DNA from: Candidatus Saccharimonadia bacterium
GTDB taxonomy: Bacteria > Patescibacteriota > Saccharimonadia > UBA4664
Assembly: GCA_035544015.1 (NCBI GenBank)
Contig: DATKIP010000076.1
Span: 256,299-320,298 of the forward strand
DNA length: 64,000 nt
Direction of reading: 5' to 3'
The notes beneath the pieces were generated by a model. It was not told the DNA's origin, ran no database searches, and saw only the letters and a program-made list of their open reading frames with translations. The position numbers and the translations under genes are program-made. Shown here piece after piece: positions 33,532 through 61,007 of the stretch; the first letter of the stretch is position 1, and each line of letters begins with the position of its first letter.

Positions 33532-33557
33532 TACGCCGTTCGTAGCGCAGACTCGCC

Positions 33558-33593
33558 AAAAAATGACACAAAGTGTCAAAAATTCCCCATGCA
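33558..33593. repeat. Copy 1 of a conserved AT-rich palindromic element (AAAAAATGACA-N5-TGTCAAAAAT + TCCCCATGC)
   Basis: Near-identical to the elements at about 44195 and 60455. Lies between the convergent GNAT and S8 protease genes. Approximate coordinates. Confidence 0.6.
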
Positions 33594-36358: not shown

Positions 36359-39300
36359 CTAATCCTCGCGCTCGCACCAAGCGCGCGCATTCTGAAACAT
36401 CCGCAGCCACGGACTCGCCTCAAACCCCTGCCATTCCGTCGGCAGCCACGGCCACTGCCATAGCGCATTGGCCATGCGCTCCGGGTGCGGCATCATGGCC
36501 AGATGGCGGCCGTCGGGTGAGCACAGCGCCGTGATGCCTTCGGGGCTGCCGTTGGGGTTAAACGGATAGGCCGTGGTCGGCCCGCCGTCGGGCTCCACAA
36601 AGCGCAGGGGCGCCAAATTGCCCGCACGAATATCGCGCAGCACCTCCGGCGTCGGCACGTGCAGCCGGCCTTCGCCGTGCGCCACCCATACCCCGAGCCG
36701 CGAGCCCTCCATGCCAGCGAGCATGATCGCCGGGCTCGGTCCAATCTCTACCGTTGCCAGCCGCGACTCAAACCGGCCCGACGCGTTCTGCACAAACCGC
36801 GGCTTCTCGTCGTCCGGCAGCTGCGCAAACGGCGCCCAACCCAACAGTGCCATGAGCTGCGCCCCGTTGCATACGCCGAGCGAAAACGTGTCGGTGCGGG
36901 CATAAAAGCTCGCAAACTGATCCGCCAGGACCGGGTTAAATCGAATGACTCCGGCCGAACCCTTACCCGCGTCGAGCACGTCGCCAAAGGAAAACCCACC
37001 CGGAAACGCCACGCCGCGAAATTGCTCCAACCCCACGCTGCCCGTTAGCAAATCGCTCATGGTAACGTCCCAGGCCTCAAAACCGGCCGCCACAAACGCC
37101 GCCGCCATCTCGCGGTCGCCGTTGGTGCCGGCTTCGCGCAGCACCGCCACCTTGGGCGCCGCCAATCCCGGCCCAATAACGGTCGCCGCGGAGGGCGAGA
37201 CCGGCTTAAAGGTCAAATGCCAGCGCGGATTCACGCGCGGCGCGGCCATCACCGCCGCCTCATCGGCCACCAGTTTGGGGTTGGCCTGGAGCGCGTCGAG
37301 TCGGCTACTAGTGGCTTCCCAGAGCCCGCGCAGCTCGTGCAGCGGTACATCGACCAGCGCGTGGCCGCCGGCGCTCACGCGCACCGGAGCGCCCGCCTCG
37401 CCCACGCGCCCCACCGTGGTGTGCGCTACGCCGTCGCTGTCGAGCTCAGCCCGCACTGCCTCGGCCGCGGCCGGCGCCACTTCGAGCAGCACGCCCAGTT
37501 CTTCGCAAAACAGTGCCGCCAGCGGCTCCTCCGCACCCGGCAGCTCAAGCTCCAGGCCCAGGTTACCCGCCAGTGCCATCTCGATAGCCGTCACCACCAA
37601 GCCGCCGTCGCTGCGGTCGTGGAGCGCGCGCACGCGACCGCGCCGAATCAGCCCCTGCACGCTCACAAACGCTTGCCCCAGCACGGCCGGGTCATCGAGG
37701 TCGGGCGCCTCGTCGCCGATTTGCCCGTAGGCCTGCGCCAGCGCCGAGCCACCCAGCCGTGTGTGCCCGCCGCTCAAATCTACCAATATCAAAACATTGC
37801 CCGCACCCTTAAAATCGGGCGTGATTTTTTGGCGTACGTCCGGCATCACCGCATACGGCGCTACCACCAGCTGCCCCGGCGCCTTCACCATACCCCCTGG
37901 GGTTTGAGCGGCCATCGAGAGGCTGTCCTTGCCACCGTCCACCGCCATCCCCAGCGCGGTCATGGTGTCGCTCATGGCGACCGCCGCTTCATAGAGCCGC
38001 GCGCCCTCGCCCTCGAGCTTGGCCGGCCACATCCAGTTGGCGCTGGCCCGCACATCGCCCAGGTCCGAAATCCGCGCGCCCATCAGGTTGGTAATCGCCT
38101 CGCCCACCGTCATGCGGCCCTGCGCGCCCGGCGAGACCAGCCCAATGAGCGGCCGCTCGCCCTGGCTCACCACGGTACCGCTGTTGCCAAAGAGGCTATG
38201 CGCCACCACGCCGTAATCCGCCAGCGGGGTCTCGAGCGGTCCCACCCCTTGCTGCTGCGCGACGAGCCCGGTCACGCTCCGGTCAACCTTGCGCGTCAGC
38301 CAGCTTTTGGAGCCCACGCTCACCAGCCGCAGTACCCGCTCGAGCGCCTGGCGCACCGTCAGGTCGGCGGGCAACTTCAGCGGCCGCAGCACTGGCGGCT
38401 GCGTGGTGAGCTCCACCGTTTTGGCCACCGAGTCACCCAAGACAGCCTCAAGCGGCAGGTTTACCGGCGTCGTATCGTCGGTCGCATCGTGCACCACCAG
38501 CTGCCCATCACCGGTGATTTCGCCCACCACTGCCACCGGCGCTTTCTCGCGCGCGCAAATTGCCTCAAACCGCGCCAAATCCTCGGGCCGCAGTAGCAGC
38601 GCATCGCGCTCCTGCGATTCATTGCCCCAGATTTCCAGCACCGACAGCGTGGCGTCGCCCACCGGAATCGCGCGTAGCTCGATACGCCCGCCCACGGGGT
38701 TGGCAATCTCCGGCAGGGCATTCGAATCGCCGCCGGCGCCTAAATCGTGCGCCGACACAATCGGGTTACTCGCGCCCAGCTCCACGCAGGTGCGAATCAC
38801 GCGCCCCAGCCGCTGCTCCATCTCGGGGTCGCCGCGTTGCACCGCATTAAAATCGAGGGCCGCCGAGTTGTCACCGCTCATGAGCGAGCTGGCCGCACCT
38901 CCGCCCATGCCGATCCGGTACGCCGGGCCACCCACCTGCACGATGAGCATTCTTGGCTCGGGAAGGCCTTTTTCGGCATGATTCGCATCAAGCATACCCA
39001 CGCCCTCGCTGTACATCACCGGCTTAAACCATGCCCGGTAGCCGCCCGGCGTGGTTTGGCCGAACGTCCGCACGTGTCCCAAGAGCACCGGCTCGCCAAA
39101 GCAGTTACCGTAATCCGAGGCGCCATTCGAAGCCTCGATCAGAATGTCGAGCGGCGAAGCCAAATTCTCCGGATGCGCCACGCCGTCTTTCTCCCAGGGC
39201 AGTTCGTAGCCGGGAATGTGCAAATTCCCCACGCTGTAGCCCACCCCGCTCGCCACCACTAGGCCACCCCGCCCCACCGCCTGATTGTCGCGAATCCGCC

Positions 39301-40246
39301 CGCCGGTACCCGTGGCCGCGCCCGGGTACGGCGCAATACCCGTCGGGAAGTTGTGGGTTTCGGCCGTGAGCGTGGGATGATACGTGCGGTCGTCGATCAC
39401 AAATCGACTCGCCTCACCCGGCCGGCCTGGCGCCATCACATGCACCCGCCGACCCTCGATAGCCGAACTATCGTCGTGAAATGCGATCACCGAATTATTC
39501 GGGTTGGCCCGCCACGGCGCCTTCACGATCTTCATGAGGCTCGTATCGAGCGGCCGGCCGTCAAGCACCAAGCTACCCCGAAAAAACCCGTGCCGCGCGT
39601 GCTCATTATTGGCTTGGCCAAGGGAAAATATCTCAACATCCGTCGGGTCACGCTGCAACCGATTTACGAATAATTCCGCGTAACTGGCCATATCCTGCTC
39701 ATCCATAGCCAGCCCAAATTCCTGGTTGGCCCGGCGCAGCGCCTCGATACCGTCGCGCAGTACCGGCACGGTGCGCACCGGCTCCGGCGCCCCGCTCACC
39801 GCCAGCGTGGCCGGCGCCTCATGGTACGGCTGCTGGGTCATGCGGTCGGCCAGCGCCGCCTCGAGCTGGCCGCGCTCATCCGGCCCCAGCCGCTTCGAAA
39901 ATCCCAGCCGCCGTGCCCGCTCAATCCGGATCACGCTGTCAAGCCCCACCGCTCGGCAAATCTGGCGCGCGGTACTCGCCCACGGCGTCTCAAAGTTCAG
40001 TCGCGGTCCGATCTCGATCACGCTCGGATGCTCGGTCAAAAAAGACGCCTCGCGCGTCCCCCAAGGGTCAAATGTCTCGCCGAGCAGCCACTGGAGCTGC
40101 CCAATTTCGCCTTCGCTGAGCTGCCGCGCCGTCTCCACGTAATACACCCACTCGGCCTGTACTGACCGCGGCGCCGCGATTCCAGCCGCTTCCAGTTGGC
40201 TCAATTCACGCGCCCGCAGTTTGTCTCGGCGATGAAACTTGTACAC
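36359..40246 (-). CDS. purL: Phosphoribosylformylglycinamidine synthase, single-chain large form
   Basis: 1295 aa, collinear with E. coli-type PurL including the C-terminal glutaminase domain (GVCNGAQLMALLG, MMPHPER). Confidence 0.9.
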   Translation of the reverse strand: MYKFHRRDKLRARELSQLEAAGIAAPRSVQAEWVYYVETARQLSEGEIGQLQWLLGETFDPWGTREASFLTEHPSVIEIGPRLNFETPWASTARQICRAVGLDSVIRIERARRLGFSKRLGPDERGQLEAALADRMTQQPYHEAPATLAVSGAPEPVRTVPVLRDGIEALRRANQEFGLAMDEQDMASYAELFVNRLQRDPTDVEIFSLGQANNEHARHGFFRGSLVLDGRPLDTSLMKIVKAPWRANPNNSVIAFHDDSSAIEGRRVHVMAPGRPGEASRFVIDDRTYHPTLTAETHNFPTGIAPYPGAATGTGGRIRDNQAVGRGGLVVASGVGYSVGNLHIPGYELPWEKDGVAHPENLASPLDILIEASNGASDYGNCFGEPVLLGHVRTFGQTTPGGYRAWFKPVMYSEGVGMLDANHAEKGLPEPRMLIVQVGGPAYRIGMGGGAASSLMSGDNSAALDFNAVQRGDPEMEQRLGRVIRTCVELGASNPIVSAHDLGAGGDSNALPEIANPVGGRIELRAIPVGDATLSVLEIWGNESQERDALLLRPEDLARFEAICAREKAPVAVVGEITGDGQLVVHDATDDTTPVNLPLEAVLGDSVAKTVELTTQPPVLRPLKLPADLTVRQALERVLRLVSVGSKSWLTRKVDRSVTGLVAQQQGVGPLETPLADYGVVAHSLFGNSGTVVSQGERPLIGLVSPGAQGRMTVGEAITNLMGARISDLGDVRASANWMWPAKLEGEGARLYEAAVAMSDTMTALGMAVDGGKDSLSMAAQTPGGMVKAPGQLVVAPYAVMPDVRQKITPDFKGAGNVLILVDLSGGHTRLGGSALAQAYGQIGDEAPDLDDPAVLGQAFVSVQGLIRRGRVRALHDRSDGGLVVTAIEMALAGNLGLELELPGAEEPLAALFCEELGVLLEVAPAAAEAVRAELDSDGVAHTTVGRVGEAGAPVRVSAGGHALVDVPLHELRGLWEATSSRLDALQANPKLVADEAAVMAAPRVNPRWHLTFKPVSPSAATVIGPGLAAPKVAVLREAGTNGDREMAAAFVAAGFEAWDVTMSDLLTGSVGLEQFRGVAFPGGFSFGDVLDAGKGSAGVIRFNPVLADQFASFYARTDTFSLGVCNGAQLMALLGWAPFAQLPDDEKPRFVQNASGRFESRLATVEIGPSPAIMLAGMEGSRLGVWVAHGEGRLHVPTPEVLRDIRAGNLAPLRFVEPDGGPTTAYPFNPNGSPEGITALCSPDGRHLAMMPHPERMANALWQWPWLPTEWQGFEASPWLRMFQNARAWCERED

Positions 40247-40358
40247 CCATACTCCCCATCATTTAGCCGTATCTTGGTTTATCCGCCGGGCTTCGTCAAT
40301 CCTTACTTTGATCTGGTGTCGATAACCGCTAAACTTATGAAGTAATGTTGCGGAACAA

Positions 40359-40925
40359 ATGACCAAACTCGCCGTGATGGTGTCGGGCGTGGGCTCGATA
40401 CTCGAGGCTATACTCGAATCCGGCCTCCAGGTATCGTTGGTAGTGGCCGACCGCCAGTGTCGCGGGCTCAAATTGGCGGCCGATGCCGGGATTCCGGTCG
40501 AGCTCGTCGAACGTAGCAACTACGGCCATAGCTTCGACCGCCTGGCCTATTCACACCGCCTCGCCGGCGTGCTCAAAGCCCACCACATCGATCTTGTCGC
40601 CATGGCCGGCTTCATGACCGTCCTCGATAAGCCGATTTTTGACCATTACGAAGGCAAAATCCTCAACACCCACCCCTCGCTTCTGCCGGCCTTTGCAGGC
40701 GAACGAGCGGTGCAAAATGCCCTCGATTACGGCGTCAAATTGACCGGCTGCACCATCCACATCGCCACCATCAAGCTCGATGACGGCCCCATTTTGGCCC
40801 AGGAAGCCGTGCCGGTATTGGCCGGCGACACGGCCGAATCGCTCCAGGAGCGCATCAAGCAAGTGGAGCGCCGGCTGTATCCCGAAACTATCCGCCACCT
40901 AATCACGAAAGCGAGCCCCGTATGA
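40359..40925 (+). CDS. purN: Phosphoribosylglycinamide formyltransferase
   Basis: 188 aa: LAVMVSGVGSILEAIL, N-10-formyl-THF binding block NTHPSLLPAFAG, HxxD. Confidence 0.85.
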   Translation: MTKLAVMVSGVGSILEAILESGLQVSLVVADRQCRGLKLAADAGIPVELVERSNYGHSFDRLAYSHRLAGVLKAHHIDLVAMAGFMTVLDKPIFDHYEGKILNTHPSLLPAFAGERAVQNALDYGVKLTGCTIHIATIKLDDGPILAQEAVPVLAGDTAESLQERIKQVERRLYPETIRHLITKASPV

Positions 40926-42025
40926 GTAAACCCGGCCTCAAATACGCCGACACCGGCGTTGATTATAGCGCCCTCGACCCCTTTAAGCGCCTCGCCCAGA
41001 CGGCGGCCGCCCAGACCGCCGGCAATGCCCAGCGCCTCGGTTTCACCGAGCTATCATCGAGTCGCGGCGAGAGCGCCTACCTCATTGAGGCCGCCGACCA
41101 CTTCATCGCTCATGTCGAGGAGGGTCTCGGCACCAAAAACCTCGTGGCCGACGCCGTGCATGAGCTCACCGGCCGCCAGTATTATGACGCCATCGCCCAA
41201 GACACCGTCGCCATGATCGTCAATGACATGATCACGCTCGGCGCGCTGCCGGTCTCGGTGGCCATGCACGCCGGCGTCGGCGACACACGCTGGTTTGCCG
41301 ACGAGGCCCGCGCCGCCAGCCTCGTGGCCGGCTGGAAGCACGCCTGCGACCTGGCGCGCGCCGTGTGGGGCGGCGGCGAGTCGCCCGGGCTCACCGGCGT
41401 GGTGGAGCCCCACGCCGTGGTGCTGGCCGGATCGGCCGTGGGCGTCATCAAGCCCAAAGACCGCCTCATCACCGGCAACATCGCCGCCGGCGATGCCATC
41501 GTGATGTTTGCCAGCACCGGCATCCACGCCAACGGCCTGTCGCTGGCCCGCAAAATCGCCCAGTCCACCGGCTACGACGCCACCTTGAGCGACGGCCGCA
41601 CCTACGGCGAGGCGCTCCTCGATCCCACGCATATCTATGTCCCCGTTATCGAGGACGTGCAGGAGGCGGGCATCAAACTCCATTACGCCGTCAACATTAC
41701 CGGCCACGGCTGGCGCAAGCTCATGCGCGCCGTCGAGCCGTTTGTGTACGAAATCGACACCATCCCCGAGCCGCAGCCGGTCTTCACCTTCATGCAGGAG
41801 CACGGCCCGGTCGACGACGCCGAAGCCTACGGCAACTTCAATATGGGCGCCGGTTTCGCCGTGTACGCTCGCCCCGAAGACGTCGCTCGCATCATCGAAG
41901 TCGCCGCCAGCCATAGCATCAAGGCGTGGCTAGCGGGAACTATCCGCAAAGACGCAGATCAGAAAAAGGTCGTCATCAAGCCAAAAAACCTAACGTACGA
42001 AGGAGACTCACTCGGTGTCCGCTAA
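40922..42025 (+). CDS. purM: Phosphoribosylformylglycinamidine cyclo-ligase (AIR synthase)
   Basis: 367 aa. YADTGVDYSALD N-terminus, AIRS and AIRS_C domain blocks. 4-nt overlap with purN. Confidence 0.9.
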   Translation: MSKPGLKYADTGVDYSALDPFKRLAQTAAAQTAGNAQRLGFTELSSSRGESAYLIEAADHFIAHVEEGLGTKNLVADAVHELTGRQYYDAIAQDTVAMIVNDMITLGALPVSVAMHAGVGDTRWFADEARAASLVAGWKHACDLARAVWGGGESPGLTGVVEPHAVVLAGSAVGVIKPKDRLITGNIAAGDAIVMFASTGIHANGLSLARKIAQSTGYDATLSDGRTYGEALLDPTHIYVPVIEDVQEAGIKLHYAVNITGHGWRKLMRAVEPFVYEIDTIPEPQPVFTFMQEHGPVDDAEAYGNFNMGAGFAVYARPEDVARIIEVAASHSIKAWLAGTIRKDADQKKVVIKPKNLTYEGDSLGVR

Positions 42026-43454
42026 CCGCCCCCTCATCCCCAATGTCCTAGCCGACCGCTACGCGTCCGTTCCCATGCTCGAATTATGGACCGACGAAGC
42101 CCGCGTGGTGCGCGAACGCCGGTTTTGGCTGAGCGTGCTGCGTTCACAAATCAAGCACGGCCACGATGCGCCTGCCGGAGCCGTGGCCGACTATGAGAAG
42201 GTGATCGACCAGGTCGACCTCGCCTCCATTCGCCGCCGCGAGCTGCGGCTCCACCACGACGTAATGGCGCGTATCGAGGAATTCAACGCTCTCGCCGGCC
42301 ACGAGCTCGTCCACGTGGGCCTCACCTCGCGCGACGTCACCGAAAACACCGAGCAGGCGGCTATTCGCGACTCACTCACCCTGATGCATGGCCGGCTAGT
42401 GGGCACCCTGGCCCGCCTCGACCGCCTCGCCCGCGAGTATCGCGACCTGCCCGTGGCCGGCCGCAGCCACAACGTGCCGGCGCAGGTCACCACGCTCGGC
42501 AAACGTTTCGCCACCGCCGGCGAGGAGTTACTCCTGGGCATTGAGGCGCTCGAGGATTTGCAGGCGCGGTACCCGCTGCGCGGCATTAAGGGCCCCATGG
42601 GCACGGCCGCCGACCAGCTGCAGGTGCTCGGCGGCGACCCGGCCGCCGTCGGCGCCCTCGAGGCCGACATCGCCGCCGAGCTCGGTTTCGAGCATGTCTT
42701 CGGCAGCGTCGGCCAAGTGTACCCGCGCTCGCTCGATCTGGCCGCGGTCGACGCACTCATCCGCGCGCTAGCGCCGCTCTCAAGCCTCGCCACCACCATC
42801 CGCCTCATGGCCGGCAACGGCCAAGCCACCGAAGGCTTTGCCAAGGGCCAGGCCGGTTCCAGCGCCATGCCGCACAAAATGAACGCCCGCTCCTGCGAGC
42901 GCGTCCACGGCCTCTACGCTGTGCTCGGCGGCAGTCACGCGCAGCTAGCGGCCATCACCGGCGACCAATGGTACGAAGGCGACGTCACCTGCTCGGTGGT
43001 GCGCCGGGTCGCTCTGCCCAATGCCTTCTTCGCAGCCGACGGCCTGGTGCAGACCATGCTCGCCGTACTCGATTCGTTTGGCGCCTACCCGGCCGTCATC
43101 ACGGCCGAGCTCACTACCTACCTACCGTTCCTAGCCAGCTCCAAAATCCTCATGGCCGCAGTCGCGGGGGGTGTCGGCCGCGAAACCGCCCACGCCGCCA
43201 TCAAGGAGCACGCCACGGCCGTGGCCAAGGCCATGCGCGAATCCGGCGCCACCACCAACAACCTCGTCGACCGCCTCGCCGCCGACGACCGCCTCGGCCT
43301 CACCGCCGCCGAGCTCACCAGCCTCATCCACGCCGAGCCGCTCAGCTTCGCCGGCCTGGCCCGCGAGCAAGTCGACACCTTCCACGCCCGCGCCGCCACC
43401 GTCCTCGAAGCCCACCCCGAAGCCGCCAAATATGTACCGGAAGCAGTACTTTAG
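42015..43454 (+). CDS. purB: Adenylosuccinate lyase
   Basis: 479 aa, fumarate-lyase family with the signature region GSSAMPHKMN. Overlaps the purM stop. Confidence 0.9.
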   Translation: MSANRPLIPNVLADRYASVPMLELWTDEARVVRERRFWLSVLRSQIKHGHDAPAGAVADYEKVIDQVDLASIRRRELRLHHDVMARIEEFNALAGHELVHVGLTSRDVTENTEQAAIRDSLTLMHGRLVGTLARLDRLAREYRDLPVAGRSHNVPAQVTTLGKRFATAGEELLLGIEALEDLQARYPLRGIKGPMGTAADQLQVLGGDPAAVGALEADIAAELGFEHVFGSVGQVYPRSLDLAAVDALIRALAPLSSLATTIRLMAGNGQATEGFAKGQAGSSAMPHKMNARSCERVHGLYAVLGGSHAQLAAITGDQWYEGDVTCSVVRRVALPNAFFAADGLVQTMLAVLDSFGAYPAVITAELTTYLPFLASSKILMAAVAGGVGRETAHAAIKEHATAVAKAMRESGATTNNLVDRLAADDRLGLTAAELTSLIHAEPLSFAGLAREQVDTFHARAATVLEAHPEAAKYVPEAVL

Positions 43455-43521
43455 CGAACCATCACGCTAGGGTATAGCGGGGTTGTCCTGTTTTGTAATA
43501 CCTCTAGTGCTGCAACAGTAG

Positions 43522-44160
43522 TTACTCTATAAAACCAGCAGCCTTTGCCTCTGCTTCCAGCCGTAGCGTCTGTGCAGTGATAGTCTCATACAACCTAGCG
43601 TCAACTGTCTTCGCAAAAGGCAAATAGAAATTCTTCGTTTCATCGAGGTAGATCGTGACCAGCTCTTTACCAAATGTCATTGCCCAGTGGAGATTATCAA
43701 TCCTATCTAAAAGCTTAATAATTTTTGCTTCGTGTGGTGCAGATTGAAGGTTTTTAAAATACGCTCCATTGACTCTCTGGCGCTTCTGAGTTTCGGAAAA
43801 TTGCCCTGCTACGCTTGGCTTAGAAAGCGACATAACAATTTCGCAGATGTGGCTTCCAAAAATACTTCTTAGTTCGGCTTTGGTAAAACTGGCGTCATCT
43901 TCGATGCAATCATGCAGCAAAGCACTGGCAACAAACTCTTCTGTCACCTCGTTTGCTAGAAAATTAATAGTTAAGGTGGTGACGGGGTAAATATGCTCAG
44001 TAAGGTAGGGTTGTCCATCTTCTCGGAGTTGACCGGTGTGCGATTTAATTGCTTGTTCGAGGGCACGCTCAATAAGCGCGGTGAGACCAACTGCGGACCG
44101 ATCGATACGGTTTCTGAGCTCGGCTTCTGTAACACTCTCAGGGATTTGCATTATCTGCAT
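43522..44160 (-). CDS. HD-domain small alarmone hydrolase, (p)ppGpp pyrophosphohydrolase-like (RelA/SpoT HD domain only)
   Basis: ORF trimmed to MQIMQIPESV. Blocks HTGQLREDGQPYLTEHIYPV, ALLHDCIEDD, IIKLLDRIDNLHW match the SpoT/Mesh1 hydrolase domain. Lies in a low-GC island. Confidence 0.6.
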   Translation of the reverse strand: MQIMQIPESVTEAELRNRIDRSAVGLTALIERALEQAIKSHTGQLREDGQPYLTEHIYPVTTLTINFLANEVTEEFVASALLHDCIEDDASFTKAELRSIFGSHICEIVMSLSKPSVAGQFSETQKRQRVNGAYFKNLQSAPHEAKIIKLLDRIDNLHWAMTFGKELVTIYLDETKNFYLPFAKTVDARLYETITAQTLRLEAEAKAAGFIE

Positions 44161-44194
44161 AATAACAGGTTCGAAAGTGATTCCTTGGTTGGGC

Positions 44195-44229
44195 AAAAAA
44201 TGACAAAAATTGTCAAAAATTCCCCATGC
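44195..44229. repeat. Copy 2 of the conserved AT-rich palindromic element (AAAAAATGACAAAAATTGTCAAAAATTCCCCATGC)
   Basis: About 35 nt upstream of the HD-domain gene start and about 12 nt downstream of the PRTase-domain stop. Approximate coordinates. Confidence 0.6.
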
Positions 44230-44240
44230 GACACGCCGGA

Positions 44241-44642
44241 CTATACATTCTCCCAAAAAAAGTGAGGCGGATTTCCGTCGCACGTCTCACCCACGAAGTC
44301 CGGCAGAAGACCACCATTCGAAGCAATTAAGACGCAACTTTTTGCCATACCTCCGCGCTCCCGAACCAGAGCAACCGCCTTGCGCGTGAGCAGCCCGCGC
44401 TTACTCGCGTCATCCACTACTAGTACCCGACGTCCCGTGCAATCGCCCAACGTTGCCAACTCATCGAGATGATAGTCGCCAGTATCGTCCTTGTAGACGG
44501 GCAGACCAATCACGTTCCGGCTACGTATGCCCAGCCGCTTAGCAAGGACGGCCGCCGTCGGAAACCCACCCGTGCTGAGTCCAATGATCGTATCAGGCGC
44601 AAACCCCTCGGCCTCAATTTTGGCAACGACGAGCTCAATAAA
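44241..44642 (-). pseudogene. Gpt-like (xanthine-guanine) phosphoribosyltransferase domain with no start codon of its own, in frame with the upstream hydrolase across a single TAG
   Basis: 133 codons: FIELVVAKIEAEGFAPDTIIGLSTGGFPTAAVLAKRLGIRSRNVIGLPVY...RVLVVDDASKRG..., collinear with E. coli Gpt residues ~13-150. No ATG/GTG/TTG between the TAG (44643-44645) and the conserved core. Same reading frame as 44643..45575. Confidence 0.5.
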
Positions 44643-45575
44643 CTATTTCCCCTTGAGCCAATCTATAATGTCTTGGATTGCTGCCCTGCCCATTTTAGTT
44701 GGGCTTGATGTAAAGCCATGGGCAGCTTCGGGGTAAACTCGTAAATCCACTTCATTGCCGGCCGCTGAAAGCCTAGCAGCCATAGCAAAGCTATCTTCCA
44801 TCAAGATATCTGCCGTACCCACTATTATCAACGCCGGCGGTAAGCCTTTTAAATCGCCATAAAGTGGTGATATATCAGATTGTGTTTTGTCGACAATCTT
44901 TCCAGCATATGCCTGAATAAAATACTCGTCAGCATATAGCCTCCCACCTGGTGTTTGACCGCTCAAATCATATGCACCAAATTGTAAAACTGCACCAACA
45001 AATCGGGCTAAAAGCTTGTCATCACGCAGCCGAAGCAAAGTAGTCATCGCCAATGTTGCGCCTGCTGAAGAACCGCCGATTATAAGGCGTGCTGTTCCAA
45101 ACAATTGCTCAGCTTGCTCAGTCAACCAATGGGCCACAGTAGCACAGTCATCGGGAGCAGCAGGCCAAGGGTCTTCGGGTGCTAGTCGGTACTCAACGCT
45201 TATTACCGCCACTTCTAAAGCATCTGCAAGATAAGCATTTTGTACATCGTTTCTCGCAGCCTCGTTGAGGTAAAAGCCCCCGCCGGGAATATTGAGGTAT
45301 ACACCTTGCGCCTTACCTTTCTTCGGCTGAATTATCCGTACAGGAACTTCTCTGCCATATGCTTCAACAATTGCTTCAGTAATGTTACGGTCTGTTAGCG
45401 TGTCGGATGGTTTACGGGCATCTCGAGCCTCCTGTAGCCCATCAGGAGTAGTCAAATCAGGCTGCTTTTTATTGGGCTTAGCGGCTTTCCTAGCTTCGTA
45501 GAACTGCTTGCTCTCATCTGCAAGAGATTTCATTTCAGGGTCAATAAGCTGGTTTAGTCCGATTTGCATACTCAC
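44643..45575 (-). CDS. Alpha/beta-hydrolase fold-3 esterase/lipase (HSL/Aes-like)
   Basis: 310 aa. HGGG-type oxyanion motif (NIPGGGF), nucleophile elbow GGSSAG, C-terminal His region. Low GC relative to its surroundings. Confidence 0.7.
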   Translation of the reverse strand: MSMQIGLNQLIDPEMKSLADESKQFYEARKAAKPNKKQPDLTTPDGLQEARDARKPSDTLTDRNITEAIVEAYGREVPVRIIQPKKGKAQGVYLNIPGGGFYLNEAARNDVQNAYLADALEVAVISVEYRLAPEDPWPAAPDDCATVAHWLTEQAEQLFGTARLIIGGSSAGATLAMTTLLRLRDDKLLARFVGAVLQFGAYDLSGQTPGGRLYADEYFIQAYAGKIVDKTQSDISPLYGDLKGLPPALIIVGTADILMEDSFAMAARLSAAGNEVDLRVYPEAAHGFTSSPTKMGRAAIQDIIDWLKGK

Positions 45576-45693
45576 TTATTATACTGTGGTTTGGCTTCTG
45601 ATTGATTAACCATCCCTGCCCGATTGCCCAGGTACCGCTTGTGTCGCCGTTGGGTTAAAATAATCTAGAAAGCTAGTGAAGGAGCCACAAACC

Positions 45694-46176
45694 ATGACCC
45701 TCGTACACATCGTTCTCGGCAGCGCCAGCGACCTCGAAGCCGTCAAGGCCGCCGGCATGACCCAAACCCTAGACACCATCGGCATCTCCAGCGCCGTATC
45801 CGTTTGCAGCGCCCACCGTAACCTCGAAGAGCTCGGTACCTTTGCCACCGAAGCCGTCCAAAACGGCGCCCAAGTCTTCATCGGGGTCGCCGGCATGGCC
45901 ACGGCGCTTCCAGGTGCGCTCGCCGGCCTCACCACCATGGCCAAGCCCATCATTGGCGTGCCCCTCGACGAGCACGGCATCGACTCGTGTATCTACATGC
46001 CGCCGGGTGTGCCCGTGCTCACCGCCGGCGTGGGCAAATCCGGGCTCAAAAACGCCGCCATCGCCACGGCCCAAATTCTCGCCGTAAACGACCCCGCCAT
46101 CACCGAAGGCCTAGCCACATTCCTCGCCGCCTCCAAAAAGCAGCCGCAATTCGACATTAAAGAAGGGAGCAAATAA
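45694..46176 (+). CDS. purE: N5-carboxyaminoimidazole ribonucleotide mutase / AIR carboxylase catalytic subunit
   Basis: ORF trimmed to MTLVHIVLGSASDL (AAGGAG SD 9 nt upstream). PurE blocks GSASDL, AHR, GVAGMA. Confidence 0.85.
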   Translation: MTLVHIVLGSASDLEAVKAAGMTQTLDTIGISSAVSVCSAHRNLEELGTFATEAVQNGAQVFIGVAGMATALPGALAGLTTMAKPIIGVPLDEHGIDSCIYMPPGVPVLTAGVGKSGLKNAAIATAQILAVNDPAITEGLATFLAASKKQPQFDIKEGSK

Positions 46177-47018
46177 TGGCAGACGCGCAAGTCAAACTGG
46201 CCGAAGGCAAAACCAAAGTCATCTGGGACGCCGGCGACGGCAAAGTCACGATTGAATCCAAAGACGACATCACCGCCGGAGACGGCGCCAAGCACGATAT
46301 GCTCGAAGGCAAAGCCATCACCGCCAACCAGACCACTTCAAACGTTTTTGCCCTTCTCAAAGCCAAAGGTCTGGCCACCCATTTCATTGAACGCACCGCC
46401 GACCGCGCCTTCAAAGCCCGCTCAGCTAAGATGATCCCGCTCGAGCTCGTCGCCCGCCGCATCGCCACCGGTTCGTATCTCAAGCGCCGGCCGGACGTAA
46501 AGGAAGGCACCATTTTCGGCGATCTCGTGGTGGAATTCTTTGAAAAAGACGACCCCAACCACGATCCTCTGGTGATTTTCGACTTCGTCACCGGGCGCTT
46601 GTTGCGTTATACCGCCAGCAAGCCCCTGGGCGAAGGCTTTATGAACGAACAGCCCCTGGCCGAAACCATATTTAAAGACCTCGACGCCCCCCAAATCCTT
46701 ACCCTGGTGGAGCTCACCAAGCAGGCTTTTGAAGTTCTCGAAGCCGCCTGGGCCGAGCAGGAGGTAACCCTCGTGGACCTCAAAATAGAGGCCGGCCGCG
46801 ACGCCGAAACCGACGAATTATTCATCGCCGACGTGGTCGATAACGACTCCTGGCGCATCTGGCCCGGCGGCGACAAGTCCCAAATGAAAGACAAGCAAGT
46901 TTACCGCAACCTCGCCGGCGTGGACGATCCCGCCGCCAAGGCCAAAGAGCTCGGTAAAATCAAACAAAATTACACCTGGGTGGCCGAAGCCACTGAAAAA
47001 TTCAGCCAGGGCGAATAA
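46176..47018 (+). CDS. purC: Phosphoribosylaminoimidazole-succinocarboxamide synthase (long form)
   Basis: 280 aa. SAICAR synthetase blocks (EGKTKVIW, IPLELVARR, VDLKIE). TAATG overlap with purE. Confidence 0.85.
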   Translation: MADAQVKLAEGKTKVIWDAGDGKVTIESKDDITAGDGAKHDMLEGKAITANQTTSNVFALLKAKGLATHFIERTADRAFKARSAKMIPLELVARRIATGSYLKRRPDVKEGTIFGDLVVEFFEKDDPNHDPLVIFDFVTGRLLRYTASKPLGEGFMNEQPLAETIFKDLDAPQILTLVELTKQAFEVLEAAWAEQEVTLVDLKIEAGRDAETDELFIADVVDNDSWRIWPGGDKSQMKDKQVYRNLAGVDDPAAKAKELGKIKQNYTWVAEATEKFSQGE

Positions 47019-47019
47019 T

Positions 47020-48624
47020 TTGAAATCACGCACCGCCCTCATCTCCGTCTACGACAAAACAGGCATTGCCGACTTTGCCAAGACCCTTACCGAACTCGGG
47101 TGGCAAATTTACTCATCGGGCGGCACCGCCAAGGCGCTCACTGCCGCCGGCGTGCCCGTCACTGACGTAGCCGAGCTCGTAGGCGGAGAGGCGATTCTCG
47201 GCCACCGGGTGGTCACGCTCTCGCGCGAAATCCACGCCGGCCTACTCGCCCGCGACACGCCCGAAGACCGCGCCGAGCTCGAACGCCTCAGGGTGCCGTA
47301 CATCGACCTCGTATGTGTCGATCTCTACCCGCTCTCGGGCGAAATCGCCAAACCCGGCTCCACGCCCGAATCCGTCATCGAGCAAACCGACATCGGCGGC
47401 CCCACCATGCTGCGCTCCGCCGCCAAGGGCCGCCGCATCGTCATCGCCCGACCCCAGCAGCGCACCGAAGTACTCAAATGGCTCCAGGCCGGCGAACCCG
47501 ACGCCGCCACCTTCCGCACCCGCCTCGCCGCCGCGGCCGAAGCCGTAGTCGCCGACTATGCGCTCACTTCGGCCCGCTACACCTCCCGTGGCCTCCACGA
47601 CGGCCTCGTGGGCACCCAAGTCCTAGCCGCCAAATACGGCGAAAACGCCTGGCAAACCCCGGCCGGCCTCCATACCACGGATTCAAACGATCCGCTCGCC
47701 CTCGACCGCTTCGAGCTCGTCGCCGGCGCCGCCCCCAGCTACAACAACCTGGCCGAGCTCGACCGTCATCTCCAAACCATCACCCACATCGCCGCCGGTT
47801 TCGAGCAAAACTTCGGCCGCGTCCCGGCTATCGCCCTCGGCACCAAGCACGGCAACCCCTGCGGCGCCGCCGCGGCCGAAACGCCCGCCGACGCCATCAA
47901 AGCCATGGTCACCGGCGACACCCGCGCCATCTTCGGCGGGCTCGTCAGCACCAACTTCGAAATCGACGAAGCCCTCGCCGAGCTCCTCCTCACTCACTGC
48001 CAACCTGCCGGCCGCCGCCTCCTCGACGCCGTCATCGCGCCATCATTCACGCCCGAAGCCATCGCGCACCTCAGTCGCAAAGGCGACAAATGCCGCTTCC
48101 TCGCCAACCCCGAGCTCGCCAAAATCGGCAAAAATTCCCTCAACTCAGCCCCGCACCTCCGCCCCGTCCGCGGCGGCTTCCTGCGCCAACCCGGTTACAC
48201 ATTCATCCTCGACCTCAAGGATCCCAACCTCACCACCACCGGCACCCTCTCAGGCGACCAAGCCAAAGACCTCATCCTGGCTTGGGCCGTCGGCAGCACC
48301 TCCAACTCCAACACCATCACCCTGGTCAAATCCGGCCAACTCATTGGCAACGGCGTCGGCCAGCAAGACCGTGTGAGCTGCTGCGAGCTCGCGGTCAAAC
48401 GCGCCACCGACGGCCAGCACGACATCACCGGCGCCGTCGCTTACTCCGACAGCTTCTTCCCGTTCCCCGACGGCCCCCAGGTGCTCATCGACGCGGGCAT
48501 CTCAGCTATCTGGTCCACCACCGGCTCCGTCCGCGACCACGAAACCACCGAACTCTGCGCGAAGCACCACGTTGCCCTCTACCAACTCCCCGACACCCAG
48601 GCCCGCGGCTTCTTCGGACACTAA
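47020..48624 (+). CDS. purH: Bifunctional AICAR transformylase / IMP cyclohydrolase
   Basis: 534 aa with a TTG start. ALISVYDKTG N-terminus (MGS-like IMPCH domain) and the C-terminal AICARFT domain. Confidence 0.9.
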   Translation: MKSRTALISVYDKTGIADFAKTLTELGWQIYSSGGTAKALTAAGVPVTDVAELVGGEAILGHRVVTLSREIHAGLLARDTPEDRAELERLRVPYIDLVCVDLYPLSGEIAKPGSTPESVIEQTDIGGPTMLRSAAKGRRIVIARPQQRTEVLKWLQAGEPDAATFRTRLAAAAEAVVADYALTSARYTSRGLHDGLVGTQVLAAKYGENAWQTPAGLHTTDSNDPLALDRFELVAGAAPSYNNLAELDRHLQTITHIAAGFEQNFGRVPAIALGTKHGNPCGAAAAETPADAIKAMVTGDTRAIFGGLVSTNFEIDEALAELLLTHCQPAGRRLLDAVIAPSFTPEAIAHLSRKGDKCRFLANPELAKIGKNSLNSAPHLRPVRGGFLRQPGYTFILDLKDPNLTTTGTLSGDQAKDLILAWAVGSTSNSNTITLVKSGQLIGNGVGQQDRVSCCELAVKRATDGQHDITGAVAYSDSFFPFPDGPQVLIDAGISAIWSTTGSVRDHETTELCAKHHVALYQLPDTQARGFFGH

Positions 48625-48642
48625 CATTACCAAAAATAAAAA

Positions 48643-48696
48643 CCCCCTAAAGGGGCTCCCGGCGCCCGCCTCCGCTCGTGGCGGAAGGCGGGCGCC
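48643..48696. terminator. Bidirectional intrinsic terminator between purH (+) and the membrane-protein gene (-)
   Basis: CCCCTAAAGGGG mini-hairpin plus GC-rich hairpin GGCGCCCGCCTCCGC-tcgtg-GCGGAAGGCGGGCGCC. T-tract on the minus-strand side. Approximate coordinates. Confidence 0.6.
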
Positions 48697-48707
48697 GCAG
48701 GGTGCGT

Positions 48708-49418
48708 TCAGAACGCGATGTACAGGAACGTCACAAACAGCGTGAGCCCGAGGATGACGAGCATCCCCGTCAGCACCAGCGCGCGCTTGAGAAACTGCGC
48801 GATGGCGCTGCGGTCGTGCACGAGCTTGTAGAGCACGAGAAGCCGGTCTTTCGGATCGACCTTCTTGCCGATCCACTCGGTAGGTTCGTCGTAGTTGGTC
48901 CACAGGGCCTTGGGCGGCGGCATCGCGCATCGGGTGAGGATCGCCACTGCCAGGGTTACCCCCGTGATCGCCGTGAGCGCCAGGTGCACCGCGAGCCTTG
49001 GCGGGTGCGGGGTGAAGACGAACATGATGCCGATCAGAGCATCCAGCCCCGACACGGCGGCGAAGCCCATCTTCGCAAAGTCCCGCATCTCATCGAGCGT
49101 CTTACTGCGATCCTTGATGAGCTCGGTGAACTCATTGGCGAGCTCTGCCTCGACGCGCGCTCGGCTGCGAGCCGGCGAAACGCGGCCGCGCCGAATCCTC
49201 TGCAGTAGGTTCCAGCGTCCTTGCGGAGCCGACTCCTTCTGCCGCTTCGCGATGAGTTTGTCGAGCCGCCGCTTGATCTCCGTGTCGCTGATGATCGGGC
49301 TTTTGCCCAGCAGGACCATGCGGAAAATCTGCGGCCATCGGTTTTGGTGCCACCATGGCTTGCGCTTCTTCTGCTGGACTGGCTGCACCGGCGTCGTTGC
49401 CACGAGCGTCTTTGCCAT
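48708..49418 (-). CDS. Hypothetical membrane protein (N-terminal basic region, 3-4 C-terminal TM helices)
   Basis: 236 aa ORF, terminated by the hairpin at ~48643-48696. Confidence 0.4.
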   Translation of the reverse strand: MAKTLVATTPVQPVQQKKRKPWWHQNRWPQIFRMVLLGKSPIISDTEIKRRLDKLIAKRQKESAPQGRWNLLQRIRRGRVSPARSRARVEAELANEFTELIKDRSKTLDEMRDFAKMGFAAVSGLDALIGIMFVFTPHPPRLAVHLALTAITGVTLAVAILTRCAMPPPKALWTNYDEPTEWIGKKVDPKDRLLVLYKLVHDRSAIAQFLKRALVLTGMLVILGLTLFVTFLYIAF

Positions 49419-49559
49419 GCTCCGACCTCTATTCGTGTATGATGAACGTCCCTCGAGGCAATACTATAAACTAATTTTATAATTTGGCAATAGCCATGTC
49501 TGCTGAGAATTTATTTGCGCCCTCCTAAGCGATTTATCAGCTACCCGTGACATGCTAGG

Positions 49560-49574
49560 GTCGTTCAACGATTG
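49560..49574. promoter_or_regulatory. Perfect palindrome GTTCAACGATTGAAC immediately upstream of the SD of the secreted-protein gene
   Basis: 6-3-6 inverted repeat about 10 nt upstream of GAAGGGGAG and the ATG at 49591. Candidate operator. Approximate coordinates. Confidence 0.35.
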
Positions 49575-49590
49575 AACAGAAGGGGAGTAT

Positions 49591-50121
49591 ATGAACATTC
49601 CATCCAAGAAAATCATCATTCCAATGGCTGCGGTCGCTATCTTTAGCGCCGGAGCTTACGGAGTAACCCAAGTCTCGGCCGCCAGCGACTCAGCCAATCC
49701 GCAGACCTCGCTCGTCCAGAAAATCGCCGACACGTTCCATCTCGATAAAACCAAAGTCCAGGCCGTGTTTGATCAAAACCGCCAGGACAACCAGGCCAAT
49801 CACGAAACCAATTACGAGGCGCGCCTCACGCAGGCCGTCACCGACGGTAAGCTCACGAGTGCTCAAAAAGACCTCGTGCTGGCCGAGCACAAAAAGCTTC
49901 AGGGCGAAATGGACGCCGCTATGAGCGACGACACTTCAACCTCCAAGACTGACCGCCGCACCGCCATGCAAAAAATCCGCAGCGAAACCCGAGACTGGGC
50001 CAAAGCCAACCACATTGACGCCAAATGGCTCATCGGCCCTGGCCGTATACGCGGTGGTCACAGGGGTCCCGGCGGCGGCATGCCCGGCGGCGCCGACAGC
50101 CCTGCCGACACCCAAAGCTAG
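49591..50121 (+). CDS. Secreted protein with LTxxQ-like motifs (possible CpxP/Spy-like periplasmic protein) and a Gly-rich tail
   Basis: 176 aa. Signal peptide MNIPSKKIIIPMAAVAIFSAGAYG, motifs KLTSAQKDL and KTKVQAVF, C-terminal GGHRGPGGGMPGG. Confidence 0.45.
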   Translation: MNIPSKKIIIPMAAVAIFSAGAYGVTQVSAASDSANPQTSLVQKIADTFHLDKTKVQAVFDQNRQDNQANHETNYEARLTQAVTDGKLTSAQKDLVLAEHKKLQGEMDAAMSDDTSTSKTDRRTAMQKIRSETRDWAKANHIDAKWLIGPGRIRGGHRGPGGGMPGGADSPADTQS

Positions 50122-50972
50122 CGCTCCAGGCTCCGCCAGGCCTCCGGCAGATACGCGATCACATCCGAGGCCACCATTCCGGCCTCGGTTTTCGCTGTTC
50201 GCGCGCTGTCGCCGGCTAGCCCGTGCAGGTACACGCCGGCCTCGGCAGCCTGCGCCGCGTCCACGCCCTGCGCCAGCAACCCGGCAATGATGCCGGTCAA
50301 TACGTCGCCCGTGCCCGCCGTCGCTAGCCCCGGGTTGCCCGTGGTATTTTCGCGCACCGTACCATCGGGCCGGGCGATGAGGCTATGGTGGCCTTTGAGC
50401 ACCACGATGAGTCCGGAGCGCTGCGCAAAGTCCGCCACCGCTCGCTTAATTTCATTCCGAGCAGCGGGCAATGTGCTGTCGGTCAACTTTTCGTACTCAC
50501 CCGTGTGCGGTGTCGCGATGATGCCGGGGCTCGCTCGCGCTAGTTCACCCAGCGCCGAAATATGGCCTCGGTAGGCCAAAAGGCCGCCGGCATCGAGCAC
50601 CACCGGCACGCGCACCACCGGCACCAGCGCGCGGCACAGCGGCGCCGCCTCAGCGCGCAGGCCTGGGCCCACCACCACGGCCGTCACGCGCCGCGCGGCC
50701 GCAAACTCGGCCGCCGTCCGCGCCGTCTCAGCCGGGTCCGCCGGCAGCGTCAGCGTCATGATCTCGCGCACCCGGCGCTCCAGCCTGTCGGTTACATGAG
50801 CCGCCGCCGCAATCGTCACCAGCCCCGCGCCCGCCCGCAGCGCGGCCTCGCCGGCGAGCAGCGGCGCACCCACCATCCCCGGGGACCCGCCTACCACCAG
50901 TACATGGCCAAAATCGTATTTGTTGACCCCGGTGGGCCGGTGTAGGAGCCGTCGCACAAGTTCATCATTCAT
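50118..50972 (-). CDS. ADP-dependent (S)-NAD(P)H-hydrate dehydratase (YjeF C-terminal / Nnr2 domain)
   Basis: ORF trimmed to MNDELVRRLL. Blocks HVLVVGGSPGMVGAPLLAG, TPHTGEYEKL, GNPGLATAGTGDVLTG. Confidence 0.7.
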   Translation of the reverse strand: MNDELVRRLLHRPTGVNKYDFGHVLVVGGSPGMVGAPLLAGEAALRAGAGLVTIAAAAHVTDRLERRVREIMTLTLPADPAETARTAAEFAAARRVTAVVVGPGLRAEAAPLCRALVPVVRVPVVLDAGGLLAYRGHISALGELARASPGIIATPHTGEYEKLTDSTLPAARNEIKRAVADFAQRSGLIVVLKGHHSLIARPDGTVRENTTGNPGLATAGTGDVLTGIIAGLLAQGVDAAQAAEAGVYLHGLAGDSARTAKTEAGMVASDVIAYLPEAWRSLER

Positions 50973-51075
50973 ACTTCCATCATAAACCCATACCCAGCAC
51001 GACCCCCAAAAAAAAGCAGCGGTGGCCCTCCCGGCGACATAGCACGGGGAGGGCCACCACATCGGTGACCAGGAC

Positions 51076-51681
51076 TCAGGTATCGAGAAAAGCGTCGAAC
51101 GCCTCCCGCCTGACGGACAGATCCGGAACCTGTGGATCCGGCTCCGTTTTCCAGGTAGTGCCCGACCAACTCCAGGCTAAGAGATTACCCGGTAAGGTGA
51201 GCTTCACCGCGCCACTTGGCATCTTCAGCAGAAGCCGCCGGTTGCCGGAGAAGACGACCATCCAGTCGTTGCCGGGACCATCCCGCTGGGCGAAGGAACT
51301 TGGCACGTCCGCCGGATTTGCCTTGCCGGAATGCACCGGCACTACCGCGTACACGCCTTTCTGGCCCTTCAGGCTGGCGAAGCAGTAGTCGGTCTGACCG
51401 CGGCAGCTCTGCGGCAGGTTGGTCGGCTTCAGCGCCTTCAGCTGCTGTCCGCAGACTTTGGCGGCGAAATTCGCCACCGTCTCCCCGCGTGGGGCGGTGG
51501 TGGTGGGTTGGCCACACTCGACGGGCGCACTGGACCCCTTGCCGCTACCGATCTGGGGAAGGTTCTGGAAAAGCAGCCACGCGACCAAGGCCACAACTGC
51601 TGCCGGCGCCCCCAACCCCACTATGAGGCCCCTGAGCGAGCTGCCGAGCCCGTTACCGATAGAGCCATCTGGATTGGTCAT
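51076..51681 (-). CDS. Membrane-anchored Cys-containing extracytoplasmic protein, paralog A (unknown function)
   Basis: Real 3-prime part of the 565-aa ORF that is otherwise antisense to purA. Start at MTNPDGS with GGAAGAA SD. TM anchor LIVGLGAPAAVVALVAWLLF. Paralogous to 53602..54270 (YAVVPV/FAVVPA, WSWSGTTW/WRWSGTAW, REAFDAFL/RNDFDVFF). Confidence 0.5.
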   Translation of the reverse strand: MTNPDGSIGNGLGSSLRGLIVGLGAPAAVVALVAWLLFQNLPQIGSGKGSSAPVECGQPTTTAPRGETVANFAAKVCGQQLKALKPTNLPQSCRGQTDYCFASLKGQKGVYAVVPVHSGKANPADVPSSFAQRDGPGNDWMVVFSGNRRLLLKMPSGAVKLTLPGNLLAWSWSGTTWKTEPDPQVPDLSVRREAFDAFLDT

Positions 51682-51807
51682 AGTTCTTCCAGCCTCTCTG
51701 GATAGACGCATAGGACAAAGCTTATTATCCAAATATATAAACCATTTGTCAATCATCGCCCGCCCGCCGGCCCGGCGCAGTCGCCATATCTGGCCCGCCC
51801 CTGTACA

Positions 51808-60385: not shown

Positions 60386-60454
60386 CCCCCAAACCTGAGT
60401 TTCAAAACTTCCGGAATTTTCCTCGCCCCGACGAGCCCATTCGCATGCATAGGG

Positions 60455-60484
60455 AAAAAATGACAAAAAATGTCAAAAATCACC
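60455..60484. repeat. Copy 3 of the conserved AT-rich palindromic element (AAAAAATGACAAAAAATGTCAAAAAT)
   Basis: About 70 nt downstream of the AlkA-like gene and about 130 nt upstream of the gene starting at 60615. Followed by an AT-rich promoter-like stretch. Approximate coordinates. Confidence 0.6.
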
Positions 60485-60614
60485 GAGCCATCCGAAGTGA
60501 GGCTGGGGTTTTGAGACTCAGGGTCCCCAAAACTTGCTTTATTTCATAGTATATTATATACTATGTATTAGTAATTTGCCCTACGAATTACCACCACCCC
60601 GATCAAGGAGTGTC

Positions 60615-61007
60615 ATGAGTACCGTTAGCGACAGCATTGCGGCAGCGAACGCGGCCCAGGAGGTTAGCTCCCAAGAGGCCCTCCTCGCCGACGCCCGCCA
60701 AACGGCCGAGCATCTCAAGAAGGTGCAGAACGAGGTCGCGCGCGCCGGAAGGCCTTGCCAGGTCGACGGCATCCCCGGCGAGCCCGTGGTGGTCTGGAGT
60801 CTCCTCGACTCCGACCTCATGGCTCACGCCACCGGTCTCACGGAAGATGGCATACTGGTCCGGTCGTATCTGAGGTCGACCATCGCAGGTTGGCTCACCG
60901 GCCGCGACACCTGGTCACCCTACCGCGTCCTCGACGTGACAACCCTGCCCTCCGAGGAGCGCATCGCGCTCCATACCCAACTCCAGCGGATCCGCGACCA
61001 CCACTAA
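60615..61007 (+). CDS. Hypothetical protein
   Basis: ORF 60534..61007 trimmed to MSTVSD, preceded by an AAGGAG SD. 131 aa, no recognised domain. Confidence 0.45.
   Translation: MSTVSDSIAAANAAQEVSSQEALLADARQTAEHLKKVQNEVARAGRPCQVDGIPGEPVVVWSLLDSDLMAHATGLTEDGILVRSYLRSTIAGWLTGRDTWSPYRVLDVTTLPSEERIALHTQLQRIRDHH

Follow-up and report, generated by a model that had tools for sequence, protein, structure and literature searches.

The short A+T-rich palindrome that occurs three times in a 64,000-nucleotide stretch of Candidatus Saccharimonadia DNA (the whole of which is referred to below as the window) marks, in our judgement and with slightly better than even confidence, one small family of dispersed repeats that is non-coding and restricted to its lineage, and in which a MITE and core-only forms would share a curved palindromic module. 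This reading draws on the anatomy of copy 3, on a recurrence that is not due to chance, on the different contexts in which homologous elements lie, on the direct duplications that flank them, and on the curvature predicted for the core. The features are collected in Table 1.

Table 1. Coordinates of the three copies and of the parts of the copy 3 element (positions in the window)
Feature	Position	Strand	Remarks
Copy 1, core-only unit CAAAAAATGACACAAAGTGTCAAAAATTCCCCATGC	33557..33592, core 33558-33583	+	no arms, no terminal inverted repeats
Copy 2, core-only 36-nt unit	44194..44229, core 44195-44220	+	inside low-GC stretch
Left flanking direct repeat CCCCAAA, probable target-site duplication	60387..60393	+	shared-flank test
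Copy 3, full-length MITE-like element, imperfect long palindrome	60394..60522	+	nhmmer match 60393-60521, E=1e-41
Left terminal inverted repeat CCTGAGTTTCAAAAC	60394..60408	+	15 nt, 93% complementary
Core of copy 3, A6-TGACA-A5-TGTCA-A5T	60455..60480	+	three A-tracts, at intervals of 11 and 10 bp
Right terminal inverted repeat GTTTTGAGACTCAGG	60508..60522	+	15 nt, partner of left repeat
Right flanking direct repeat CCCCAAA	60525..60531	+	GT between right inverted repeat and duplication

Recurrence of the core

The sequence AAAAAATGACA-N5-TGTCAAAAAT has exactly three matches in the window (at 33558, 44195 and 60455), all on the plus strand, where 0 would be expected by chance. Written as the 26-nt pattern AAAAAATGACANNNNNTGTCAAAAAT, it is present in all three copies with 0 mismatches over its 21 specified positions, and a search of the window that allowed up to 3 mismatches gave no additional match. 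The pattern was also absent from 100 dinucleotide-preserving shuffles (0 matches), which rules out chance occurrence of the three cores and bears out the original prediction of three copies at these positions. The bare palindrome TGACA-N5-TGTCA is absent from the rest of the window even when 1 mismatch is tolerated.

That two of the copies have further sequence in common on the 3' side, as had also been proposed, proved correct: copies 1 and 2 form a common 36-nt unit, CAAAAAATGACA..TGTCAAAAATTCCCCATGC, with 34/36 identity (repeat family D12). Both differences fall inside N5, leaving 31/31 identity outside it, and N5 is the only place at which the three window copies vary. The N5 of copy 1 (CAAAG) and that of a homologous metagenome locus described below (L019, CTTTG) are reverse complements, and the palindrome thereby becomes TGACAC-N3-GTGTCA in both. 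The invariance of the core itself among the metagenome loci is an ascertainment effect, the exact pattern having been the search query.

Two details of the earlier description need adjustment. It had presented the core as a palindrome with A-tracts in a genome of >60% GC; the TGACA/TGTCA inverted repeat is indeed present, but the flanking A-tracts lie on the same strand and are therefore in-phase direct tracts outside the inverted repeat. The GC figure was slightly generous, given that the GC content of the window is 59.8%.

Anatomy of copy 3

Copy 3 sits within a larger element of 129 bp and 48% GC, a setting that the original prediction missed, as it did the helical phasing of the A-tracts. 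The ends of the element read CCTGAGTYTCRAAAC...GTTTYGARACTCAGG; the terminal inverted repeats carry 1 mismatch in 15 nt and extend to 18 pairs if G.T is allowed, and they are found also in a homologous metagenome element (L014/L018). The 129 bp fold into a single long, imperfect hairpin whose apex is the core, and the gene caller placed no ORF within them. The element lies between the gene for an HhH-GPD glycosylase (plus strand, stop at 60385) and a gene for a 130-aa protein (60615-61007), so that reading the context upholds the earlier placement of this copy upstream of an AT-rich stretch and the gene at 60615.

MITEs are defined as AT-rich, intergenic elements of <500 bp that have inverted repeats of 4-30 bp and flanking direct repeats and give rise to transcripts with stable stem-loops (PMC10969869). 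Copy 3 falls below about 500 bp and lacks coding capacity, its inverted repeats are within the 4-30 bp range, and direct repeats flank it. By anatomy it is thus a bona fide-looking MITE, a name we give it because of its inverted repeats, the 7-bp duplications, the lack of an ORF, and a homology to other elements that stops at the repeats.

The region downstream of copy 3 has features of its own. The AT-rich stretch upstream of the 130-aa gene is promoter-like (TTGCTT-17-TATACT, by eye) and contains a perfect 21-nt palindrome, CATAGTATATTATATACTATG (10+1+10), at 60545-60565, which looks like a separate putative operator, possibly autoregulatory. The 130-aa protein itself has no Pfam or NCBIfam match. 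Further on, at 61865-63237, a gene for an ECF sigma factor (177 aa) shares 4 nt with a 280-aa gene that lacks a family match and whose product is a probable anti-sigma partner; this pair lies 1.3 kb downstream of copy 3, and we found no link between it and the repeat.

Homologous elements in other genomes

Scanning the JGI metagenomes with the core plus YMCC yielded three high-GC contigs that are homologous to copy 3 beyond the core. In the alignment of copy 3 to L014+L018 and to L019 the homology starts at ACCTGAG and stops at CTCAGG, and the flanks are unrelated. The element occupies three loci in three different contexts and in at least 2 organisms: between the HhH-GPD gene and gene 60615 in the window, beside AMMECR1/LigB in L019, and at EamA-ribE-ribD in L018/L038, the host of which is also labelled Candidatus Saccharimonadia. 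Between copies the arms are 71-86% identical, and the element is found in both orientations with respect to its neighbouring genes. The L019 copy is truncated, its right inverted repeat being missing, and two metagenome contigs from sister samples break off inside the element, a behaviour typical of repeats.

Each of the two complete elements has a 7-bp direct repeat on its two sides, CCCCAAA for the one in the window and TTGGGCG for the L014+L018 element, the left and right flanks of the latter coming from two sister-sample contigs that were joined in this analysis. The duplications sit 0-2 nt from the inverted repeats, an offset of 1-2 nt being a point against the transposon reading, and the chance of finding at least 7 shared nucleotides in 10-nt flanks was 0.0023 per element, as estimated from 200,000 random placements in the window. 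Beside one end the sequence is in every case CCCAA-like (CCCCAAA, CGCCCAA and CCCCAAAAA), which suggests a target preference.

Of the three possibilities raised by the original prediction (an operator, a weak minus-strand terminator, or a small dispersed repeat), the dispersed repeat is the one supported, with copy 3 as a 129-bp element that has inverted repeats, a 7-bp duplication, homologues in unrelated contexts and a position at a synteny break point; the terminator is weakly supported. A second repeat family in the window (D13, CAAAATTTCCCGGA) was considered as a relative of the left arm and rejected: its copies are intragenic, some of them in paralogous genes, and their count is not above chance.

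The documentation of the family as multi-copy is weak, since about 72 kb of this genome holds one full-length element and there are three loci overall. The window contains neither a transposase gene nor a second pair of the inverted repeats that we could find, and a search for a parent IS with matching ends gave none. An empty site was sought through homologues of PurB, HhH-GPD and EamA; the relatives examined offered no orthologous junction, because the neighbouring genes differ in every one of them, and the contigs that carry the same HhH-GPD protein all have the same neighbours.

Copies 1 and 2

Copies 1 and 2 are shorter. In a search with an nhmmer profile of the full element, copy 1 aligned at model positions 58-92 only and copy 2 at positions 54-93 only, and profiles built from the arms found nothing within 200 nt on either side of these copies. 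The surroundings of copy 1 contain no inverted repeat beyond GGGAATT/AATTCCC, and near neither copy is there a credible pair of terminal inverted repeats, so that the arms and repeats that define a MITE are lacking here. Partial MITE copies without inverted repeats have been described (PMC10969869), and copies 1 and 2 would be at most core-only derivatives of the full element.

The boundaries of the two copies are identical (C-A6 ... CCCCATGC). Together with the perfect identity outside N5, these boundaries make the 36-nt unit look more like a discrete functional entity than like a longer element that has decayed at random. We infer that the 36-nt form is most likely either a derivative that has no mobility or a free-standing copy of the putative protein-binding module.

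The genomic positions given for these copies in the original prediction were accurate. Copy 1 lies between the convergent ends of a GNAT gene (plus strand, stop at 33531) and a subtilase gene (minus strand, stop at 33682). Copy 2 follows, at a distance of 11 nt, the stop of a purF-like C-terminal phosphoribosyltransferase remnant of 90 aa (minus strand). It is also upstream, by 35 nt, of the in-frame ATG (44160, minus strand) of an HD_4/SpoT-N-terminal-like gene, the (p)ppGpp-hydrolase-like gene of the earlier description.

The neighbourhood of copy 2 is itself of some interest. The 90-aa ORF (44241-44513, minus strand) matches the C-terminal part of phosphoribosyltransferases only weakly (among them purF, positions 331-380 of 432, E about 3e-3) and is probably a gene remnant within the purine cluster. 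Between purB and purE, at 43522-45575, lie the HD_4/SpoT-like hydrolase gene and an alpha/beta-hydrolase gene, where relatives carry other genes or none, which makes it likely that this segment was acquired recently; copy 2 is flanked by two low-GC genes, the HD gene with a GC content of 0.45 and the esterase gene with 0.47, vs 0.68 in purB. In the ENA gene calls the 212-aa HD gene is absent and is replaced by a 52-aa piece and by an opposite-strand 90-aa ORF that overlaps copy 2. We considered copies 1 and 2 as att sites bounding an island and rejected this, because the interval between them holds purL-purN-purM-purB, which is syntenic in relatives.

The purine genes at 36359-53097 form a seemingly complete de novo set (purL, purN, purM, purB, purE, purC, purH, purA). 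Saccharimonadia are generally described as being without nucleotide biosynthesis, and the set is therefore unusual. Outside its own clade, the PurB of the window is nearest to actinobacterial proteins, with 62-65% identity.

Predicted curvature of the core

The TGACA half-sites are 10 bp apart centre to centre, about one helical turn, and the A-tracts recur every 11 and 10 bp. Since the half-sites sit within A-tracts that are phased at about 10.5 bp, the DNA of the core should be intrinsically curved. We computed curvature across the window with the Bolshoy-Trifonov wedge model, in degrees per about 30 bp. With predicted values of 40.1 and 37.7 degrees, respectively, copies 2 and 3 rank 1 and 2 in the window, for which the mean is 9.2 degrees and the 99.9th percentile 33.3; copy 1 reaches 27.2 degrees, at the 99.3rd percentile. 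A Leishmania kDNA-like phased A-tract control sequence gave 42 degrees in the same model. From these ranks and the palindrome, the core would be a palindromic recognition site in intrinsically bent DNA, a candidate protein-binding and bending module that may be likened to the IHF site of Correia elements.

By eye, the core can be set against the IHF consensus, which we take to be WATCAANNNNTTR with an upstream A-tract, as A6-N10-TGTCAA-N4-TCC/CAC; WATCAA is then matched at 5/6 positions, TTR is unmatched, and the spacing exceeds that of lambda H' by 2 nt, so that the likeness to an IHF site is one of resemblance only. CtsR boxes, sigma-54 -24/-12 elements, and hix/gix, dif and attC core sites were compared in the same way, by eye, and none is in register with the core.

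Distribution

The DNA of relatives that we searched amounts to about 140 kb of distinct sequence, made up of about 135 kb from relatives with proteins 72-84% identical to PurB, HhH-GPD or EamA (L021-L037 and L039) and the other 10.8 kb of L038. In this DNA we found neither the core nor the arms nor the inverted repeats, and from the relatives (70-84% protein identity) the accessory genes beside the copies are likewise absent. In L021, PGI directly abuts purL, and purB is followed by purE; the gene after HhH-GPD is a different one in every relative. Because the relatives are without the adjacent accessory genes, each of the three copies marks a break in synteny, with accessory or low-GC genes beside it. 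For the HhH-GPD protein, TM7/Saccharimonadales provide the closest homologues, and NCBI labels the proteins of the contig Candidatus Saccharimonadia. The window forms the final 64 kb of this 320-kb metagenome contig (ENA ERZ27251635 k141_318506), of which a further 7.7 kb upstream contains no copy. That segment and the start of the window (185-6350; L040 7968-16230) hold four tandem paralogues of about 670-690 aa with a pectate-lyase-like domain (PF12708) and near-identical N-termini (MARLPKPGGD...), which lie in a polysaccharide/glycosyltransferase cluster beside an exosortase-like gene.

Among species-representative genomes the exact core gave 11 single matches, 10/11 of them in genomes of 27-46% GC, and we read these as chance; matches in a Planctomycetota MAG (L006) and in Pseudomonas were inspected and dismissed. 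Viral contigs gave 5 core matches, all in contigs of 33-44% GC and none of them related, and 0 matches either to the 3' extension of the core-only units or to the inverted-repeat pattern. With blastn the 129-bp element had no match in PLSDB plasmids or INPHARED phages. Rfam gave 0 matches at the gathering score over the whole window and, at E<=10, nothing but chance snoRNA matches in the three copy regions; no tRNA was found.

Two of these by-products deserve a brief description. A viral contig (L028, 9140-9290, with two sites about 115 bp apart) and the Planctomycetota MAG (L006, 1145-1170) have AAAATGACACAATGTGTCAAAAA in common with similar flanks, and also TGACACAATGTGTCA; this common site is possibly a phage operator, and no repressor-like ORF was seen beside either. 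In another viral contig (IMGVR_UViG_3300006916_000401, 33% GC; L029, about 7780-7930), a dense array of TGTCAAAAA/TGACATAAA with a 10-11-bp period looks like origin iterons. It has the same design of half-site and A-tract as the core, but its origin is unrelated.

Alternative functions

The inverted TGACA half-sites with their 10-bp spacing, in which only the spacer varies, are what one might expect of an operator for a dimeric regulator, and if they were one, the HD gene and gene 60615 would belong to a three-site regulon and the MITE would merely carry the site. The sharp, identical 36-nt boundaries of copies 1 and 2 fit such a role, as does the promoter-proximal position of copy 2, one site of the three. 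On the other hand, copy 1 sits between two convergent stop codons, and copy 3 has about 135 nt between it and the ATG downstream, and lies beyond the separate promoter-like stretch with its own 21-nt palindrome. Unlike what a regulon would leave, the window holds no degenerate sites, whether at 3 mismatches or by profile search, no HTH regulator gene was identified beside any copy, and the asymmetry of the A-tract flanks is unusual for a symmetric dimer. We regard an operator as unlikely. It would be more doubtful still that the minus strand of the core, a stem-loop followed by U6, terminates transcription weakly as an intrinsic terminator or forms the 3'-end hairpin of an mRNA. The U6 tract is present on the minus strand of all copies, a simple scan flagged the minus strand of copy 1 (TGACACTTTGTGTCA+TTTTTT), and in 4/5 independent loci a minus-strand gene (the subtilase, the purF remnant, EamA and the L019 ORF) ends just before the element. 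That orientation bias is not significant, however, the scan left copies 2 and 3 unflagged, copy 3 has the wrong orientation for the gene upstream of it and follows no minus-strand gene, and the core stem alone, with 5-6 bp and 2-3 G-C pairs, is worth about -6 kcal/mol; nor would termination explain the conserved upstream A/T tract or the 3' extension TTCCCCATGC. A sigma-70 promoter was rejected for either strand: the minus strand has TTGACA, but no copy has a -10 hexamer at 16-19 nt, and a promoter scan placed none that overlaps any of the three copies.

Another possibility is that the 129-nt element acts as a folded plus strand, either as a small structured RNA or as a single-stranded DNA site of the attC or IS200/IS605 type at cassette junctions. 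For the two complete elements, the consensus fold is more stable on the plus than on the minus strand (-41.5 vs -22.1 kcal/mol), the 18-bp closing stem has five mismatches, every one of them G.U on the plus strand where it would be A.C on the minus strand, copy 3 alone reaches -46.9 kcal/mol on the plus strand (z=-3.8, vs -1.3 on the minus strand), and all copies lie at junctions of variable genes. Yet the comparison involves only two complete sequences, and C>T on one strand accounts for four of the five changes, so that the asymmetry could reflect either selection on a single-stranded plus form (RNA or ssDNA) or, with n=2 sequences, a C>T mutational bias. The variable orientation of the element relative to its neighbours argues against a simple co-transcribed RNA role, and the element has no promoter and no Rfam match. 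The core sites of attC are RYYYAAC/GTTRRRY, and the ends of the element are unlike these; the 7-bp duplications, moreover, point to cut-and-paste or copy-paste transposition of double-stranded DNA. As with the terminator, we give this possibility little credence. Most speculative of all is a composite of these ideas, to which we assign a very low probability: the 26-bp curved palindrome would be the recognition or bending module for an accessory factor of a Saccharimonadia recombinase or transposase, or for a nucleoid protein, the preservation of pairing on the plus strand specifically would mean that the 129-nt element is processed as a folded single strand in the manner of attC or IS200/IS605 ends, and the sites would mark junctions for the exchange of accessory cassettes (GNAT/subtilase, the HD hydrolase, gene 60615) in the genome of an episymbiont.

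Relation to known repeats

A close parallel to the dispersed repeat that we favour is the Correia/NEMIS family of Neisseria, likewise a non-coding intergenic element of ~100-200 bp with terminal inverted repeats, the transcript of which folds into a long hairpin. The flanking duplication of Correia elements is TA, compared with 7 bp here, their inverted repeats are about 26 nt rather than 15 nt, and they number >100 copies, whereas very few were seen here; there is no sequence similarity to the copy 3 element, and core-only 36-nt copies are not among the described features of the family. Both have an internal bending site, which in copy 3 would be the curved palindromic core predicted here and in Correia is an IHF site, described as bona fide (PMC10969869). 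The central IHF site of Correia elements may serve to bring their two ends together.

ERIC sequences are imperfect palindromes of roughly 127 bp that are intergenic, co-transcribed and found in either orientation, and QMITE2 has inverted repeats and direct repeats of 7-9 bp (PMC10969869). Copy 3 resembles ERIC/IRU and the QMITE-type MITEs in size, palindromic layout, flanking direct repeats and a position just past stop codons; it differs from them in sequence and in host phylum (here Patescibacteria/Saccharimonadia), and they are without a central module of phased A-tracts. Copies 1 and 2 invite comparison instead with REP/BIME units, which are extragenic palindromes of 20-40 nt located after genes, some with an IHF motif (RIB/RIP). 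REPs have G+C-rich stems, a GTAG/CGTC tag, hundreds of copies and a RAYT transposase (PMC3733652), unlike copies 1 and 2, in which the stem is A+T-rich and the tag is absent, and of which two were seen. In physical terms the core resembles the bend of the Leishmania kinetoplast minicircle, with A5-6 tracts every 10-11 bp and a predicted curvature of 40/38 vs 42 degrees for the kDNA-like test sequence, a physical analogy only that implies no homology and no shared function. In the literature we found no MITE described in Saccharibacteria and nothing on TGACA-N5-TGTCA.

Proposed mechanism and significance

In the model that we propose for the repeat family, the form represented by copy 3 would be a 129-bp MITE moved by a transposase that is presumably encoded elsewhere, and its insertion beside a CCCAA-type target would create the 7-bp target-site duplication. 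The core would serve as an architectural site, its inverted TGACA half-sites presented on one face of the helix within the phased A-tracts and, in the full element, held at the apex of the long palindrome. A bend at the core, whether intrinsic, brought about by the binding of a dimer or of an HU/IHF-type protein, or both, could then juxtapose the inverted repeats of an element that is shorter than the persistence length. Neighbouring genes might be affected as a side effect, either by curved DNA upstream of their promoters or by the weak hairpin and U-tract on the minus strand. Mobility, a protein partner and the descent of the core-only form from the full element are the steps of this scheme that would go beyond the anatomy described above.

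The repeat is of an ordinary bacterial kind, in a little-studied soil Saccharimonadia (TM7) lineage, and the understanding of transposition and gene regulation would be unchanged by it unless a protein turns out to target the core specifically. If our reading is correct, it documents a MITE family in Saccharimonadia (CPR/Patescibacteria) and provides a clean natural case of a mini-transposon centred on intrinsically bent DNA. For these organisms, the element would serve as a marker of variable, recently rearranged loci and would be a cause of contig breaks in their MAGs.
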